This document shows, one piece after another, positions 41,284 to 48,984 of a stretch of DNA of 64,000 nucleotides; the stretch's first letter is position 1; each line of letters begins with the position of its first letter. The stretch lies in sequence record EU863409. One strand, written 5' to 3'. This DNA is from Escherichia phage JS10. The notes under the pieces were generated by a model, which had not been told where the DNA came from, made no database searches, and saw only the letters and a list, made by a program, of their open reading frames with translations. The position numbers and the translations under genes are program-made.

Positions 41284-42567
41284 ATGGCAAAGATTAACGA
41301 ATTACTGCGCGAGTCAACAACTACTACCAGCAACTCATTGGGTCGCCCTAATCTTGTTGCTTTGACCCGTGCTACCACTAAACTAATTTATCGCGATATC
41401 ATCGCTGAACAACGTACTAGTCAGCCTATTGCTGCATTGTATGGTGTCAAATATCTTACCCCTGATAATGAATTCAGTTTCCAAACTGGTGCTGTTTATG
41501 GTGGTGAAGTTGGTTCTAAAGACCGTGAAACTATCCCGGAACTCACAGATAAAGCCCAGGCGATTGCCAAGGGTGACTACTTTAAGTATCAGAATGTGGT
41601 TTATAAGGCTCTTCAAGCAAGCCCACTCGCATCCACTAGCGCTACAGGATTGGCCGATGCTCTTCAAGAAGGTTTGGTGTCATTAACATGTCGTCTGGTT
41701 CCTGATGCAGCCCATACCACTAAATTCGAAGCGAGTAATGTAGAAATCTCTGATGCTGTATTCCAGGTTAATAAATGGAATGCTCCTGTTAAGACCCGTA
41801 AATTGAAGACTGCTTTGACTGTAGAATTGGCACAGGATATGGAATCAAATGGCTTCGACGCCCCTGCATTCTTAGAAGACCTCCTGGCTACAGTAATGGC
41901 AGATGAAATTAATAAAGACGTTCTGCAATCTCTGATAACCGTATCTAAACGCTATAAAGTTACCGGTGTATCTGATAATGGCATCATCGATTTGACTTAT
42001 GATAGTGCTCCGGAATCTGCCCGTAAACTTTATGAAATTGTCTGTGAGATGAATTCTGAAATCCAGAAAACTACTTCTTATTCTGGTACGTTTGTTGTGG
42101 CTTCAAGTCGTGTGGCTGCAATGCTTGCAGGTTCTGGCTGGTTAAAACATAGACCTGAAGATAATAATTGGCTCCCGGAAACTGCCTATGGTTATTTGTT
42201 GAATGGATTACCACTGTTCTGTGACGTTAACAGCCCATTGGATTATGTTATCGTAGGTGTTAAAGAGAACTATGGTGGTAATGAAGTTGTCGGTTCTATT
42301 TTCTATGCCCCATATACAGAAGGCCTGGATTTAGACGACCCAGAACACGTTGGTGCTTATAAGGTTATTGTCGACCCGGATTCATTACAGCCTTCTATTT
42401 CTCTGATGGTTCGTTATGCACTTTCGGCTAACCCATACACCGTAGCTAAAGACGACAAAGAAGCTCGTATTATCGACGCAACCAATATGGATTTAATGGC
42501 GGGCCAGAGTAATATGTCTTATCTGCTTGGTGTTAAACTTCCAGCAATTATTTACGAGGCTGATTAA
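41284..42567 (+). CDS. 24: gp24 capsid vertex protein, copy A
   Basis: 427 aa (T4 about 427), gp23-like fold protein downstream of 23. Confidence 0.9.
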   Translation: MAKINELLRESTTTTSNSLGRPNLVALTRATTKLIYRDIIAEQRTSQPIAALYGVKYLTPDNEFSFQTGAVYGGEVGSKDRETIPELTDKAQAIAKGDYFKYQNVVYKALQASPLASTSATGLADALQEGLVSLTCRLVPDAAHTTKFEASNVEISDAVFQVNKWNAPVKTRKLKTALTVELAQDMESNGFDAPAFLEDLLATVMADEINKDVLQSLITVSKRYKVTGVSDNGIIDLTYDSAPESARKLYEIVCEMNSEIQKTTSYSGTFVVASSRVAAMLAGSGWLKHRPEDNNWLPETAYGYLLNGLPLFCDVNSPLDYVIVGVKENYGGNEVVGSIFYAPYTEGLDLDDPEHVGAYKVIVDPDSLQPSISLMVRYALSANPYTVAKDDKEARIIDATNMDLMAGQSNMSYLLGVKLPAIIYEAD

Positions 42568-43850
42568 TGTCTAAGATTATAGACCTAATTAAAGAATCCA
42601 CATTGACGGCTGCCAACTCGGTTGGCCGTCCTGCTCTTCTTTCATACACCCAAGCAACTAATAAACGAATCTTTAAAGCCCTAGTTGCTGAACAAAAAAC
42701 AAGCCAACCTGTTGCCGCTCTGTACGGGGTTCGTGTACTTAATCCTGACGACAAAATGACTTATCTTGGTGGCGCTACATTTGCAGGCCAGATTGGTATG
42801 TCGGAACGTGAAAATATTCCTGAATTTACCGATTCGTCTACAGCTTATGCAGCCGGCGATATGTTCCAGTTTGAAAGTGTAGTGTTTAAAGTTCTAGAAG
42901 CATCTCCTTTCGCCGGAACCACAGAAACCGACCTCGGTGAAGTTATTTCTGAAGCAGTGGCCGCTGGGCATATTCGTATGGTATCAGATGCTGCTATTAC
43001 TTCTAAATTTGAACAAGGCCACCCTGAAATTGCTGAAGCAGGCTTCCGTATTGACAAATGGCAATCTGAAGTTAAATCACGTAAACTGAAAACTTCATTG
43101 ACAGTCGAATTGGCCCAAGACCTAGAATCAAACGGGTTTAATGCTCCTAATTTCGTTGAAAATCTGCTAGGCATTCAAATGGCAGAAGAAATTAATAAGG
43201 ACGTATTACAGTCATTAATTACGGTGAGTTCTCGTTTTAAAGTCCAAGGTGTTTCTGAAAAGGGCGTATTAGACCTTACCAACCCACGTTACGATAATGC
43301 CCAGGACCGTGCTCGTACATTATATTATTACATGTGTGAGATGAACTCTGCCGTCCAACGTCAAACTTCTTTCGCCGGGACTTATGCAGTAGCTAGTTCT
43401 CGTTGTGCTGCTATTCTCGCCGCTTCCGGTTGGGTTGAGAAAAAGGAAGACCAAGACGAATTGGCTTATGGTGTATTAAAGAATGGTCTGCCTCTTTATG
43501 CCGATATGAATAGTCCATGTGATTATGTTATTGTTGGTGTAAATGCTCAGATGGGTGAAGGACAGACGGTCGCATCTTTATATTATGCGCCTTATACGGA
43601 AGGTTTGGATGTGGTTGATGAAGAAGGTGATACTTCAGTAGGTGAATTTAAGGTTATTGTTGACCCAGAAAGCTTACAACCTACAGTAGCATTGCTTGCT
43701 CGTTATGCATTGACTGCAAACCCTTATACCGTCGCTAAGGACGATAAAGAAGCCCGCATTATTGATGGCTCTGATATGGACAAAATGGCTAACCAAAGCC
43801 AGTTGAGTTCTTATCTTGGTGTAAAACTTCCTCCATTGGATAAAAACTAA
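42567..43850 (+). CDS. gp24 capsid vertex protein, copy B (diverged tandem paralog)
   Basis: 427 aa, roughly half identical to copy A by eye (shared LKTxLTVELAQD, EINKDVLQSLITVS, PYTVAKDDKEARIID). Confidence 0.9.
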   Translation: MSKIIDLIKESTLTAANSVGRPALLSYTQATNKRIFKALVAEQKTSQPVAALYGVRVLNPDDKMTYLGGATFAGQIGMSERENIPEFTDSSTAYAAGDMFQFESVVFKVLEASPFAGTTETDLGEVISEAVAAGHIRMVSDAAITSKFEQGHPEIAEAGFRIDKWQSEVKSRKLKTSLTVELAQDLESNGFNAPNFVENLLGIQMAEEINKDVLQSLITVSSRFKVQGVSEKGVLDLTNPRYDNAQDRARTLYYYMCEMNSAVQRQTSFAGTYAVASSRCAAILAASGWVEKKEDQDELAYGVLKNGLPLYADMNSPCDYVIVGVNAQMGEGQTVASLYYAPYTEGLDVVDEEGDTSVGEFKVIVDPESLQPTVALLARYALTANPYTVAKDDKEARIIDGSDMDKMANQSQLSSYLGVKLPPLDKN

Positions 43851-43877: not shown

Positions 43878-44885
43878 TTATTTGGATACTAGTTCAATCC
43901 ATACAGCTCGTAGCGTATCTTTAACGCACTCAACGAGCTGCTTTTTAACTTCAACAGGGTTTTCTGCATCGGTTAATTCTAATTCTTCACGGGCTGCCTC
44001 TTCCAAAATATCTTGGACCGTCAAGCCCATTACCTTTCCAAAATCTTTAGGTGTTACTTCACCAATCTTACTGATAACGTTATTGATACGGTTAACTGTC
44101 ACATAATCTGTGAATTGCCACATCAAGTCCATATCGTCTTGGGACAATACTACTGCAGCCTTAATAGGCTTATCAGATTTTTTCTTCTCGCTGAATTTAG
44201 AGTTCTTACATTTAATCGCTACACGATTTCCATTAGGAAGCCAGATTGGAACATCAGGTTTCAGTACAAAGCCTTCAGCCGTAAATACTTTACCTTCGAC
44301 CTTAGGAATAAAATCGGTTGAGTTAGCAATGGTTAAACCTGCATTATCCACTGCAAAATTGTAATCTGGGATAACAGAATCAAAATCATTCGGCAGTTTA
44401 ATAAGGTCTTCAAAGCTACCTGTGGCTAAGCACGGAGCAACCTTAAACTTATGGATAATACAGAAAGCTTCCATAAGGGTATCAGTTAAAACGGATTCGG
44501 TGCCATCTTCTTTAGTAACACGGATATCAAATACATAAAAGTCTTTATCGCCGTAATCCACATTCTTCTGGATACCCGTACCAGCGAACTCGCCATAAAT
44601 TTGGTACGACTGATAATTAATAGATTCGATTAGATGTTGAACAGATTTAATAGAATCAGCATAGTTCTTAAGTACAATTTCATAGCCATAGAAATCTTCG
44701 GCCGGGAGAATTGGGCCAGTGCGCTTGGCGCACGTGACTGCGTCACGTTCTATGATTAAACTAAAGTTGGTTCCATGAATCTTCTCACGTGCTACCCATT
44801 CACCACCAGTCAAACCATGGGTACGGAGTTTTTCGATAAACTTACTGTTGTAATGGTTTTCCAGACTGCTATATTTCTTGAACAT
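43878..44885 (-). CDS. rnlB: RNA ligase 2
   Basis: [20 protein letters not shown]...[14 protein letters not shown] and C-terminal region match recalled T4 Rnl2; start at Met 44885. Confidence 0.95.
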
Positions 44886-44886
44886 A

Positions 44887-45255
44887 TTATTTGCTTCCAT
44901 AATCAATTTTAACTAATTTACCTTTAAGGTAACCATAATTTGAAGGTTTACAATCAGACATATACATGCTTTCTACCAGAGTGTGGTGCCTAGCATGGTG
45001 TATTTCTGTTTTCCACAACCCTATATTAGTAACTTCTTTGGCCCTTGGCATAACTATAACAAGTCCTAACCAAGATTTCCATATAACAGGACACAAATAC
45101 GGGTCCTTCAATGATGAGAATTCATGTTCTGTTATATTGCAATAGAGTCCAGTTAAAAACAGTTTCCAACTATAGAAGCTTGGTATCTTAATGGCGTATC
45201 GTTTCGTCAGGAAGACCTGCCGGGTTGCACCATTTCTTTTTCTGATAAATGGCAT
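44887..45255 (-). CDS. hypothetical protein with protein-kinase-like motifs
   Basis: 122 aa; GATRQVF...YAIK, then DCKPSN and IDYG at kinase-like spacing; too short for a full kinase; tentative. Confidence 0.45.
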
Positions 45256-45370
45256 AAAACCACCATAATAAATATAATTAAATAGAAGAGCTAGTAATCT
45301 TCTGTCACCAAGCCAAATGGTTTAACGGAAGGACCTAGACCCATTATAACACACCTAAATTTAAAGCATA

Positions 45371-45580
45371 TTACTTTGAACTAGAACGCGCTTTGCGCCG
45401 AACCTTGTTGTTCAATCTTTTACGATAAACAACCTTTTCTTTTGATTTAAATTTCTCTTTGGCTTGTTCTACATCGACCCAAGCTTTAGCCATGTCCTTA
45501 GCAGTACCACCTAATTTTTTAGCAATTTCTATAAAATTTAGTCCAGATTCGTGTAAAAAATGTACTTTAACCTTATCCAT
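45371..45580 (-). CDS. small basic putative HTH DNA-binding protein
   Basis: Met at 45580 preferred over track start 45619; segment LNFIEIAKKLGGTAKDMAKAW resembles HTH; lysine/arginine-rich C-terminus. Confidence 0.4.
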   Translation of the reverse strand: MDKVKVHFLHESGLNFIEIAKKLGGTAKDMAKAWVDVEQAKEKFKSKEKVVYRKRLNNKVRRKARSSSK

Positions 45581-45650: not shown

Positions 45651-46658
45651 ATGGCAGATTCTATTTTTGGTCATGACGGTCGAGGGACCTTTTCCGGTAT
45701 TGCTTTAAAGGAATCGGATACTGTTATCCCTTTTGAAAAAATTCTTACTAAAGAAAGTCTTATAAACCCGGCAAGATTGGTAGGGAGTAATTCGTATGGC
45801 TTAGGCTTGGTTAGTAAATCCGGAAGAGCTGAAGTTCTGGCCCATTTGGGGATAACCGAAGAAATGTTATCCCCTGGTATCCCTGGCCCTAAAGGTGAAA
45901 GCATTGTAGGACCGAGAGGCCCGGCTGGTCCTGTAGGCCCTGTGGGTCTAAATTGGAAAGGAACATGGAGTGCTGCAACAGCCTATGTTAAGGATGATGC
46001 AGTAGGGTACAATGGGGCTTCTTATTTTTGCGTTCAGGATTCTACCGGTAATAATCCTGCTGAAGAAAACAGCCTTTACTGGGCCTTATTGGCTTCTCAG
46101 GGTGCACAAGGCGAACAGGGTATCCCGGGTAAAGATGGTGAGCAGGGTCCGCAAGGTGTTCAAGGTCCTCCTGGGGTGGATGGGATTGATGGACTTGACG
46201 GAGCTACTGGCCCTCTAGGTCCTCAGGGTCCTCAAGGCGAACCTGGTAAAGATGGCACAGATTTGTTTTCATTCCATAAGTATACCAACGTTGCTGCTGG
46301 GTACGGTGAAATAAAAATACCTGGGGTCGCCAATACGGTTCTTAGAGTTAGATTGGTTAACAACCAAATAGAATACAGCATTTTAAGTAAAGGTGGGACT
46401 ACCCGATATTGTGATTATCACTTTGTTGCTCCTAGTGTTTCGGGTGGAACGGTTACTACCGGTGGCGGAACTAAGACTTTGTCTCCTACAGGCTCATTTG
46501 TTATAGTAAGTGCGGCATATAACGGGCTACGTCCTATTAATATAACCTTAAAGGAATGGGGTTCTAAAACAATTTCAGAAATAACAGTATTTCAACACGG
46601 GCGCAGTGTAGATTCTAATAAACCTATATTGGTTAAAATGGTTAGTTTCCCTTATTAA
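45651..46658 (+). CDS. collagen-like repeat protein with CBM5/12-like domain
   Basis: Two G-X-Y blocks flanking WSAATAYVKDDAVGYNGASYFCV...LYWALLA (chitin-binding type 3-like motif); C-terminal globular region. Confidence 0.75.
   Translation: MADSIFGHDGRGTFSGIALKESDTVIPFEKILTKESLINPARLVGSNSYGLGLVSKSGRAEVLAHLGITEEMLSPGIPGPKGESIVGPRGPAGPVGPVGLNWKGTWSAATAYVKDDAVGYNGASYFCVQDSTGNNPAEENSLYWALLASQGAQGEQGIPGKDGEQGPQGVQGPPGVDGIDGLDGATGPLGPQGPQGEPGKDGTDLFSFHKYTNVAAGYGEIKIPGVANTVLRVRLVNNQIEYSILSKGGTTRYCDYHFVAPSVSGGTVTTGGGTKTLSPTGSFVIVSAAYNGLRPINITLKEWGSKTISEITVFQHGRSVDSNKPILVKMVSFPY
46101..46256 (+). repeat. collagen G-X-Y triplet coding repeat
   Basis: About 17 consecutive GXY triplets. Confidence 0.8.
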
Positions 46659-46669
46659 TTGGAGGTAGC

Positions 46670-47530
46670 ATGTCTATACAAGTAAATGGACCTCATTATG
46701 AATTGGTTGGGAGAACGGTAACTCTTAGGGCTGTTTTATCTGAATCTTTAACTGACGCTGATATAAAATGGTACAAAAACGGTGTAAACGTTCCATTATT
46801 AGATAAAGAAGACCCGATGTATCTAAATCTTTGGGATGTAGGGTTTCCGGCTTCTGGGACCTATTATGCAATAGCAACCGATAAACTTACACAAGAGGTT
46901 TTTCAAAGCGACGATTTTGTTTTAGAAATAGGAATGGAGCCTAGAGATATAGTTATTTCCGTAGAAAATTTAGATGCTATCGTAAAGGCGGCCATAGGTC
47001 AAAAAGTTTCTTTACAACCTTTAATTTCTATGGGTGCCACGCCCTGGGCTGAAGTCGAGTGTGAATGGTGGAAATACGATAAAATGGTTTCAAATGTAAA
47101 GGATTTGGACGTTGATATAAATCCTTCTATGTACGGGACATATTCACTTAATGTTTCTGCTACCGCTGAAGGAGCCTATAATCCGTATCATGATATAGTT
47201 ACGGTAGATATCATGCCTTTAGATGGTATTTTACCAGAACCTGAAGTGTGTCCTTTTATATACTCGAATGATTTAAATCAATATTTGTCTTATCCTGGTG
47301 GAAGAAATAGGGCTCATATGTGGATAGGTTGGTGGGTATTGGATGAGATAAAAGGAGCCCTTGCTAAAGACCAGGATTGGGCTATCAATATAGAAGATAG
47401 CAATTTTAGGTATAAGTGTGAGCTCATGAAAGTGGCAGAACTTTTGTCACGATATCCTGATGTAGAAATACAGGAATCAAGAAATGGATACATTTTGAAT
47501 AGGAAGCACCTGACATTAAATGTCATATAA
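46670..47530 (+). CDS. Hoc-like Ig-domain protein (short paralog)
   Basis: Ig-like region (WYKNG...SGTYYAIATD) plus C-terminal about 70 aa similar to Hoc C-terminus (WIGWWVLDEI...YPDVEIQESRNGYIL). Confidence 0.7.
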   Translation: MSIQVNGPHYELVGRTVTLRAVLSESLTDADIKWYKNGVNVPLLDKEDPMYLNLWDVGFPASGTYYAIATDKLTQEVFQSDDFVLEIGMEPRDIVISVENLDAIVKAAIGQKVSLQPLISMGATPWAEVECEWWKYDKMVSNVKDLDVDINPSMYGTYSLNVSATAEGAYNPYHDIVTVDIMPLDGILPEPEVCPFIYSNDLNQYLSYPGGRNRAHMWIGWWVLDEIKGALAKDQDWAINIEDSNFRYKCELMKVAELLSRYPDVEIQESRNGYILNRKHLTLNVI

Positions 47531-47574: not shown

Positions 47575-48984
47575 TTAGTAAAAATAAATTATACCTGTGT
47601 CAAGAGCCGAACGATGGATAATTCTTCCATTTCGTGATTCTTGTACATCAACCTCTGGATAATCCGCAACCATTTTTTGAAGAGTGTAGCGATGGAGATA
47701 ATAATTGCTATCTGGGTCATCAGTTTTCCAATCTTTACCTTCAAGTGTCATTTTCTGGATTTCATCCATAACCCACCAACCGGCCCAAATATACGCTGAA
47801 TTACGAACCGGCAGCGGATGGACGTAAGGTAGTTCGCCTTCCGGTTCAGGAGCAACTTTAGGCGTAATTGTTACATTACCAGATTTTTTGACAGTCACAG
47901 GATTATAGTCGGTAGCCGAAACCACAACAGAAACTTCAATAACCTGTGAACCTTCAGCACTTGTATCGACTACTAAAGTATCTGTGGTGCCGGCAACAGG
48001 TGAACCATCTTTCTTCCAAGAATATGCAAAAGTAGCACCAGCAGGCGCACCTGCTACGGTAGCTTTAAAAGAAGCTGGAGTTCCTTCCGGAGTATTAATA
48101 GAGGCCGGCGCTAAAGTAACAGAAACACCTGTCATGGTCTTTTTAGTAATTGTTACACTTCCGGTTTTGGTAACGGTTAAATCGTTATAATCCGTACCTT
48201 TTAGGACTACCGAAACTTCAATAGTGTAAGAACCTACTGTAGATGTATCAACAGCAAGGGTATTACTGCTTTCGCCCGGAATAATAGAACCATTTTTCTT
48301 CCAAGAATAAGTTGCATTTACGCCGGAAGGAGCGCCAACTACATCCGCTTTAAACTGTGCAGATGAGCCTTTCTCTGTACTAATTGAGGCTGGTGTTAAA
48401 GTAACGGAAGCACCTGATATAGTTTTCTTAACAAAAGTTACCGCAATACCTTTAGTAGCTGTAGCCGGGTCATATTCAGGGGCGGTAACAGTAACTTCAC
48501 AGTTCAACGTGTAATTTGCTTCTGCTGCTTCAGTTACAGTAATAGTTTTACCAGTTTGACCTGAAATTACAGTTGTATTACGTTTCCAAACATAAGCCAT
48601 TGTAGCGCCAGCAGGGACACCCGATACGTTAGCAGTAACAACTTGGGATTGACCGATTTCTTTAGAAACGGAAGTAGGGTCTAAGGTCAAAGAAAGAGCC
48701 CCAATGGTCTTATTAGCTACAGTAACTTCAAAAGTTTTTTCAGCTACCTCAGGTTCGCCTTCGGTCGGAGTAGAAGTTGCTACTACTTTTAAAACTTTCT
48801 TACCAGCTGGAGCCGCACCGGTATATCTCAAAACATTGGTGGCCTCTGGATTAGAAGCACCGTCAATGGTCCATACATATGTAACGGTTCCTTCTACAGC
48901 TGCACCTGTTGCGGTAGCAGTGTAGTTGGCGCTTTCGCCTATTTTAATAGACGCAGCGCCGGCTATACTTACAGTAAAAGCCAT
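47575..48984 (-). CDS. hoc: Hoc highly immunogenic outer capsid protein
   Basis: 469 aa: four tandem Ig-like modules of about 95 aa and C-terminal capsid-binding-like domain; position between rnlB and inh as in T4. Confidence 0.85.
   Translation of the reverse strand: MAFTVSIAGAASIKIGESANYTATATGAAVEGTVTYVWTIDGASNPEATNVLRYTGAAPAGKKVLKVVATSTPTEGEPEVAEKTFEVTVANKTIGALSLTLDPTSVSKEIGQSQVVTANVSGVPAGATMAYVWKRNTTVISGQTGKTITVTEAAEANYTLNCEVTVTAPEYDPATATKGIAVTFVKKTISGASVTLTPASISTEKGSSAQFKADVVGAPSGVNATYSWKKNGSIIPGESSNTLAVDTSTVGSYTIEVSVVLKGTDYNDLTVTKTGSVTITKKTMTGVSVTLAPASINTPEGTPASFKATVAGAPAGATFAYSWKKDGSPVAGTTDTLVVDTSAEGSQVIEVSVVVSATDYNPVTVKKSGNVTITPKVAPEPEGELPYVHPLPVRNSAYIWAGWWVMDEIQKMTLEGKDWKTDDPDSNYYLHRYTLQKMVADYPEVDVQESRNGRIIHRSALDTGIIYFY

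Follow-up and report, generated by a model that had tools for sequence, protein, structure and literature searches.

The stretch of DNA analyzed here, called the window below, comprises 64,000 nucleotides from Escherichia phage JS10 (sequence record EU863409), a T4-like phage of the genus Dhakavirus, and our subject is a small gene on its minus strand whose product we call the mini-kinase. The original prediction had pointed to a 122-amino-acid (aa) open reading frame (ORF) at 44887-45255 with motifs in the order and spacing of a protein kinase core, and had offered a minimal kinase-like fold, a degenerate remnant or a chance resemblance as its explanation. The reading frame and its four motifs are present in the sequence as described, and they are listed here together with the glutamate that we assign to the same core:

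44887..45255, minus strand: mini-kinase coding sequence, 122 codons with an ATG start, TAA stop included; product of 14.3 kDa, pI 9.7
45211..45231, minus strand: GATRQVF, residues 9-15, turn that leads from strand 1 to strand 2, counterpart of the glycine-rich loop with a single Gly; family consensus G-x-T-R-x-V
45187..45198, minus strand: YAIK, residues 20-23, strand 3 with the presumed ATP-binding lysine K23
45127..45129, minus strand: E43 in the long helix 30-47, counterpart of the glutamate in helix C that forms a pair with the lysine of strand 3
44938..44955, minus strand: DCKPSN, residues 101-106, catalytic loop of the Ser/Thr-kinase type D-x-K-x-x-N
44896..44907, minus strand: IDYG, residues 117-120, equivalent of the Mg-binding DFG, two residues from the protein end

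The order and spacing of these elements are indeed kinase-like. K23 and D101 are 78 residues apart, D101 and N106 are 5 apart and N106 and D118 are 12 apart; in PKA there are 5 residues from D166 to N171 and 13 from N171 to D184. Likewise, K23 precedes E43 by 20 residues, and in PKA K72 precedes E91 by 19. It had also been claimed that the protein ends directly past the DFG-like motif, and it does so, with only S121 and K122 following IDYG.

The gene is real and under strong purifying selection. Among three Dhakavirus orthologs (those of the window phage, Phage NC-G and IME341) the ratio of non-synonymous to synonymous substitution rates (dN/dS) is 0.044, 0.081 and 0.055, and one ortholog pair shows 23 synonymous versus 9 non-synonymous differences. 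A hypothetical protein of Phage NC-G shares 97.5% identity with the window protein, and its IME341 counterpart 93.4%. In IME341 (NC_055742.1 64827-65195) RefSeq annotates only the last 54 codons, as a 54-aa coding sequence; the full 122-codon ORF is intact there, and BFVD holds the 54-aa fragment as a separate entry. No paralogs of the mini-kinase were found within the window.

The protein belongs to a very large family. A search with the single sequence returned 8 relatives, and a profile built from these matched 781 proteins at E<=1e-3 in a word-indexed search, with no Pfam domain in any of the 120 matches listed. When 1.84 billion cluster representatives were then searched exhaustively with HMMER, 1,405 clusters (50% identity) matched at E<=1e-3 and 868 at E<=1e-10. 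The family corresponds to PHROG 4301 ("unknown function"), which the window protein matches at E 2.7e-40, with residues 3-121 aligned to positions 39-168 of the 225 in the profile. Its members are nearly all 110-145 aa long and are found in many unrelated phage lineages. By tblastn the family is present in 98 phage records, with hosts that include Escherichia, Aeromonas, Erwinia, Salmonella, Klebsiella, Ralstonia and Rhizobium, and the carriers comprise Tevenvirinae, Asteriusvirus-type jumbo phages, Vequintavirinae, Seuratvirus and N4-like Gamaleyavirus as well as Aeromonas, Erwinia, Klebsiella, Rhizobium and Ralstonia phages. Three records label the homolog "serine/threonine kinase", and in all others it is a "hypothetical protein".

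Conservation of the motifs in homologs had been proposed as a check of the kinase resemblance, and they are kept throughout the family, both in the 121 homologs that we aligned for the residue counts given here and across the 1,405 clusters. K23, P25, F33, N40, P56, G108 and D118 are invariant (121/121), and G9, T11, R12, V14, W30, G36, E43, C55, G64, M69, V115 and Y119 are conserved in at least 90% of the sequences (G9 in 120, T11 in 113, R12 in 120, V14 in 118, E43 in 119 and Y119 in 120); G120 is found in 94. D101 is present in 106 of the 121, with E in the other 15, and the same numbers hold for N106, which is replaced by S. About 105 sequences combine D101, N106 and K116, whereas about 13 switch all three to E, S and A, and in the D101/N106 sequences (about 105) there is a Lys, in one case an Arg, at position 103 or 105 in all but about four. 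Both the coupled switch and the nearby basic residue are what would be expected of a working active site.

The abrupt C-terminus is likewise a property of the family. The tail past D118 is 2-4 residues long in 112 of the 121 members, and among 277 fetched proteins the C-terminus lies no more than about 4 residues from the end of the family profile, which is at DYG, in 239 (86%). In a minority of members the C-terminus is longer by 15 to about 200 residues, which are lineage-specific and contain no Pfam domain (Kc263, 267 aa; AH04, 163 aa; RP12, 209 aa; P0267, 350 aa; and others). We looked in the longer homologs for a C-lobe that would point to a full-length kinase ancestor; no recognizable kinase C-lobe was found, and the extensions are not common to different lineages.

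An AlphaFold2 model computed from the 121-sequence alignment has a pLDDT of 91.9 and a pTM of 0.83. It contains strands at residues 5-8, 12-16, 20-25, 67-70, 107-110 and 113-116 and helices at 30-47, 78-89 and 95-98, and the modeled elements follow one another as they do in a kinase between strand 1 and DFG. The N-lobe of the kinase superfamily is represented by a five-stranded antiparallel sheet in which helix C follows strand 3 and precedes strand 4; the ATP-anchoring lysine and the helix-C glutamate correspond, by conservation and their 20-residue spacing, to K23 and E43; the catalytic-loop aspartate and the Mg-binding asparagine five residues on correspond to D101 and N106; and the Mg-binding aspartate of DFG corresponds to D118, in DYG past strand 113-116. 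A helical C-lobe with helix F is absent from the model, as the protein ends four residues past D118. This assignment of K23, E43, D101, N106 and D118 rests on element order, spacing and the RP12-subfamily alignments described below.

In the structure comparison the model scored 9.3 against JAK, with 114 of the 122 residues aligned and a root-mean-square deviation of 3.0, followed by APH(2'') (9.2), BRAF and TTK (both 8.9), PknB (8.5), Rio2 and SAICAR synthetase (both 8.3), Bud32 (8.0), Rio1 and the Ark1 RNA kinase (both 7.9) and OspG (7.3). Foldseek retrieved TTK at E 1.4e-4, and from a library of viral structures it retrieved family members together with other small phage and giant-virus kinases. 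We regard the assignment to the kinase-like fold as very nearly certain. Of the two kinds of search that had been suggested as a check, the structure search thus returned kinases, whereas the profile searches with the protein itself returned none.

At the level of sequence, no Pfam kinase family (PF00069 Pkinase, RIO1, Kdo, APH, ABC1) was above its gathering threshold for the window protein, and neither for it nor for the 121 members did a kinase family appear in Pfam at E<=1 except for one match of a single member to the FAM69 kinase domain (PIP49_C) at E 0.2. ABC1 was matched below threshold by two divergent members (E 0.26 and 0.025). The matches of the window protein and family profiles to DPM2, a GPN-loop GTPase and TpeL, obtained in searches of Pfam, NCBIfam, PADLOC and, by phmmer and hmmsearch, of PDB sequences, were rejected as noise. 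An hhalign comparison of the family profile with PknB gave nothing, PknB being represented by a single sequence, which is too weak a template.

The bridge to known kinases is provided by ORF186 of Ralstonia phage RP12 (209 aa), a divergent member of the family that matches the family HMM over the full profile at E 8e-25 and is found by tblastn at 2e-8 over residues 1-120. Used alone in phmmer, ORF186 gives weak matches to Kin28, PKA, JNK2 and p38, and its alignment with Kin28 is in register (DLKPSNIGIRPDGRVVMVDYG vs DLKPNNLLFSPDGQIKVADFG). It also matches the PADLOC models of the PD-T4-6 kinase at 1.4e-4. A profile of the RP12 subfamily (14 members) matched 625 distinct PDB sequences at E<=1, with a best value of 0.011, and all 60 of the 60 matches listed are Ser/Thr protein kinases (PAK1, CDKL2, PKA, Aurora A, STK38 and CaMKK2 among them); the alignments shown are in register from helix E to DFG. 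From these in-register alignments we conclude that the D-x-K-P-x-N and DYG of the family correspond to the catalytic loop and DFG of Hanks-type kinases.

Of the explanations offered by the original prediction, the minimal kinase-like fold is the one that gains support, from motifs and length that are family-wide and from the predicted kinase-like fold. Our favored reading, which we hold with moderate confidence, is that the mini-kinase is a Hanks-type kinase-like domain reduced to its nucleotide-binding and catalytic core, a predicted ATP/Mg phosphotransferase. Such a domain would have kept the five-stranded N-lobe sheet, helix C, the hinge, one helix at the position of helix E, the D-x-K-x-x-N loop, strands 7-8 and DYG; the activation segment, the P+1 loop and helices F to I are missing. 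ATP-Mg would have the G9 loop and the K23-E43 pair to one side of it and N106 and D118, which would hold the Mg, to the other, and D101 together with a nearby lysine (K103 here) would direct the gamma-phosphate to a hydroxyl acceptor or support hydrolysis of ATP. We consider catalytic activity of this kind reasonably probable, and the D-x-K-P-x-N signature and the conserved catalytic residues make Ser/Thr protein phosphotransfer a putative reaction.

Without an activation segment or P+1 loop, the mini-kinase would have an open acceptor site, and as it also lacks a substrate-binding lobe of its own, it could act through this open site alone, as a homo-oligomer, or while docked on a host protein, which would be its scaffold or its substrate. 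Partners are required by each of the small kinases OspG, Bud32 and Rio, and by analogy the activity or specificity of the mini-kinase may come from oligomerization or from a host protein. A bolder proposal, which we put forward with more doubt than conviction, is that the mini-kinase is a self-sufficient kinase of 14 kDa, the smallest catalytically active member of the kinase-like superfamily, which would obtain scaffold and specificity through homo-oligomerization or host docking and would serve many unrelated virulent phages as a portable module for the phosphorylation of host targets such as defense systems.

Several points weigh against the reading of the mini-kinase as a reduced, active kinase. 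Searches of Pfam, NCBIfam and PDB sequences with the window protein or close family profiles returned no kinase. The glycine-rich loop is down to one Gly, and HRD lacks both its His and its Arg. Both hydrophobic spines of a classical kinase are anchored by helix F, and a domain devoid of this helix may lack stability or activity by itself. Across the family, variability and indels are greatest in the region at the position of helix E (73-100). The fold is predicted, and in it the catalytic residues are matched by element order, spacing and the RP12 alignments, and what we suggest for the biological role is drawn only from gene context and from the analogy with the T7 kinase (PMC13645617).

Some of these points would be explained if the protein bound nucleotides without being catalytic and were a pseudokinase, regulator or sponge, with an effect that comes from its binding to a nucleotide or a host protein. 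Phages are known to encode small proteins that sequester immune signaling nucleotides, and the loss of helix F with the whole substrate lobe, the degenerate glycine loop with its single Gly and the subgroup with E101, S106 and A116 in place of D, N and K would all suit such a function. Pseudokinases typically lack one or more of the catalytic residues, however, whereas here all residues for catalysis, including the base position (D or E) and not just those for binding, are kept across more than 1,400 clusters, and nearly all sequences of the D/N form have a basic residue at +2 or +4 from the base. We therefore regard a purely binding function as rather unlikely.

A different function could be read from the gene next door. 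The immediate surroundings of the mini-kinase gene contain the following:

43878..44885, minus strand: rnlB (RNA ligase 2), the ATG of which (44885-44883) lies one base past the mini-kinase TAA; a functional link is not implied
45260..45264, minus strand: Shine-Dalgarno-like GGTGG, 4 nt 5' of the mini-kinase ATG, as read from the sequence
45343..45368, minus strand: T4 middle-promoter-like site, TGCTTTA (45368-45362), a 13-nt spacer and TATAAT (45348-45343), 88 nt 5' of the ATG
45371-45580, minus strand: 24.3 homolog, 69 aa, 5' of the mini-kinase gene; DUF2774 at 3.3e-30, 47% identical to T4 24.3

The product of rnlB matches the Pfam families RNA_ligase (4.7e-20) and T4_Rnl2_C (1.7e-19). In the 24.3 homolog there is an apparent helix-turn-helix segment, and the mechanical ORF list starts this gene 13 codons further upstream. 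The promoter-like site falls in the gap that separates the 24.3-like gene from the mini-kinase gene and is absent from the list of a generic sigma-70 scan. Its TGCTTTA-N13-TATAAT sequence fits the T4 middle-promoter pattern of MotA box and -10 element. This match suggests pre-replicative expression together with rnlB, and the mini-kinase is thus probably made before replication, along with rnlB, from a putative MotA-type middle promoter.

With such a neighbor, the mini-kinase could be a kinase of RNA, nucleotides or small molecules that works together with RNA ligase 2, readying or tagging RNA ends or 2'-OH groups in repair or modification. The adjacency to rnlB that had been noted is true for the window phage, and NC-G and IME341 have the same gene order, but it is confined to this one genus and is not general to the family. 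In T4 the slot between rnlB and 24.3 is occupied by gene 24.2 (92 aa), to which no homology of the mini-kinase was found, and as T4 has this unrelated gene in the same place, the mini-kinase sits in a variable slot. Other lineages have unrelated small ORFs beside the gene, as is the case in 121Q, Skure, A7_1, phi G17, the Aeromonas, Rhizobium and Ralstonia phages and metagenomic contigs. By BLASTP, Skure and phi G17 share nothing but the mini-kinase, and therefore no RNA ligase travels with the gene. Furthermore, D-x-K-P-x-N is the form that the loop takes in protein Ser/Thr kinases, and the listed matches of the RP12 profile are all protein kinases. A role in RNA metabolism alongside the ligase is in our opinion quite improbable. 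We note that a 179-kb phage contig carries a gene for an RNA 2'-phosphotransferase (Pfam PTS_2-RNA, Tpt1/KptA type) 5 kb downstream of the mini-kinase homolog; about a dozen genes lie in between, and the co-occurrence is probably coincidental.

The contexts of the gene differ from phage to phage. Its neighbors in 121Q (gp215, 123 aa), Skure and A7_1 are small ORFs of unknown function; in Tequatrovirus G4507 it lies upstream of a tRNA cluster, in Aeromonas phage 2L372X between ribonucleotide reductase genes, in the N4-like phi G17 among small unannotated ORFs that form a block close to an end of the genome, and in a metagenomic contig between siphophage structural genes. In one case, a phage-like contig of a Salmonella assembly, the homolog overlaps the stop of an upstream glutaredoxin gene, and a Tad2-like gene (anti-Thoeris family) is found about 1.5 kb upstream of the homolog on this same contig. 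An all-versus-all comparison of neighbors in 121Q, G4507, A7_1, Skure, pEa_SNUABM_5, AH04 and Kc263 revealed a shared one only between the related jumbo phages AH04 and Kc263, and no Pfam family recurred in five metagenomic and genomic contexts. When all six-frame ORFs of at least 40 aa from Skure (59 kb) and phi G17 (68 kb) were compared by BLASTP at E<=1e-3, the mini-kinase was the only protein in common, in a comparison that would miss a very divergent partner. Thus no phage-encoded neighbor is conserved, and the non-homologous flanks together with the single shared protein of Skure and phi G17 indicate that the gene moves as a self-contained module.

The same comparisons bear on the idea that the mini-kinase is one half of a split kinase whose C-lobe is supplied by a second phage protein encoded elsewhere. 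In several phages a small ORF starts 1-3 nt past the gene, and a minority of members have 15-200 extra C-terminal residues, but the downstream ORFs are mutually non-homologous, and the extensions are lineage-specific and free of Pfam domains. As Skure and phi G17 have only the mini-kinase in common, within the reach of BLASTP, there is no co-inherited phage gene to propose as the partner, and we find a split kinase very unlikely. The weakest explanations are the two that remain from the original prediction, a chance resemblance of motifs or the decaying remnant of a full-length kinase, and we dismiss both: the lack of Pfam, NCBIfam and PDB-sequence matches speaks for them, but a large family keeps motifs and length, with K23 and D118 invariant and G9 and E43 nearly so, the DYG end is the family norm, dN/dS values of 0.04-0.08 reflect strong purifying selection, and the predicted kinase-like fold is a confident one.

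Returning to the mini-kinase as a reduced Hanks-type kinase, its scattered accessory-gene positions in unrelated virulent phages, together with the precedent of the T7 kinase (PMC13645617), suggest by analogy a role in host take-over or counter-defense. That it fulfills such a role as a protein kinase that manipulates the host is a possibility we raise tentatively.

Our full-text literature searches found no paper on PHROG 4301 or the mini-kinase family. The fold in itself is not new, but the conserved architecture that ends at DFG is, and this may be the smallest kinase-type enzyme known. In kinase structural biology, helix F and the C-lobe are seen as the frame of the catalytic machinery, and here a family under selection discards the frame and keeps the catalytic residues. 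This opens the question of what the smallest unit for ATP binding and phosphate transfer is, and of what replaces the missing half. If the mini-kinase is a self-sufficient kinase, then the N-lobe with the catalytic and Mg loops suffices for phosphotransfer without helix F. For phage biology, the family represents a widespread kinase-type gene that is invisible to standard annotation, as there is no Pfam or NCBIfam model and the PHROG is of "unknown function". Its carriers include Skure and A7_1 on the host K-12 and IME341 on BL21.

Some other features of the region deserve mention. Between the 24.3-like gene and hoc there are two genes on the plus strand that are lacking from this slot in Phage NC-G, the first two of the features listed here:

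45651-46658, plus strand: 335-aa protein, collagen triple-helix repeats plus a CBM_5_12-like module
46670-47530, plus strand: 286-aa protein; its residues 96-286 share 29% identity with the C-terminal part of Hoc
47575-48984, minus strand: Hoc homolog of 469 aa (T4 Hoc has 376 and NC-G Hoc 282), the extra length being internal Ig-like repeats
41284-42567 and 42567-43850, both plus strand: tandem 427-aa paralogs of the gp24 vertex protein (Gp23 family), 57% identical, with overlapping stop and start

The 335-aa and 286-aa products may be extra capsid-decoration proteins. The annotation of NC-G likewise has gp24 in two copies.

Compared with the Hanks-type Ser/Thr kinases (PF00069; PknB, PAK1, PKA and Aurora A), the mini-kinase has the same N-lobe topology with the strand-3 Lys and the helix-C Glu, and the same D-x-K-P-x-N loop and D-(F/Y)-G at the same spacing, with the RP12-type subfamily in register. 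A kinase domain spans about 250-270 aa, whereas the mini-kinase has about 120, ends 4 residues past the DFG aspartate without an activation segment, APE motif or helices F to I, lacks the His and Arg of HRD, has a one-Gly loop and stays below every Pfam threshold. The minimal or atypical kinases without an activation loop, namely OspG/NleH, Bud32 of KEOPS, Rio1/Rio2 and the archaeal Ark1, have crystallized chains of 169-269 residues and keep helix F and a short C-lobe; even the shortest of these exceeds the mini-kinase family by about 50 residues, the family has nothing past DYG, and no sequence similarity to any of them was detected. In comparison with the structural core that protein kinases have in common with enzymes of the ATP-grasp/SAICAR-synthetase type, the motifs of the mini-kinase (the VAIK-like Lys, D-x-K-x-x-N and D-Y-G) are kinase-type and not ATP-grasp-type.

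Like the mini-kinase, T7 gp0.7 and its homologs (JSS1_004 and the 121Q gp205 type) are kinase-type proteins of virulent phages, and the mini-kinase is apparently an early or middle protein. The T7 kinase (T7K) disarms host defenses by broad phosphorylation and consists of a kinase domain of about 242 aa and a shut-off domain, with a DPV motif in place of DFG (PMC13645617). In a 2026 study of the T7 kinase that covered the BASEL E. coli phages, only T7-type kinases were reported, and those of jumbo phages are of the DP(V) type, not DYG (PMC13645617). The mini-kinase does not belong to the gp0.7 family: its motif is DYG, and hhalign of the family profile against the T7K-type protein of 121Q detected no similarity, with a probability of 0.6%. 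In 121Q the T7-type kinase gp205 (224 aa) and gp215 are encoded 3 kb apart on the same strand. As this one phage has both, the T7-type and mini-kinase genes are not interchangeable copies.
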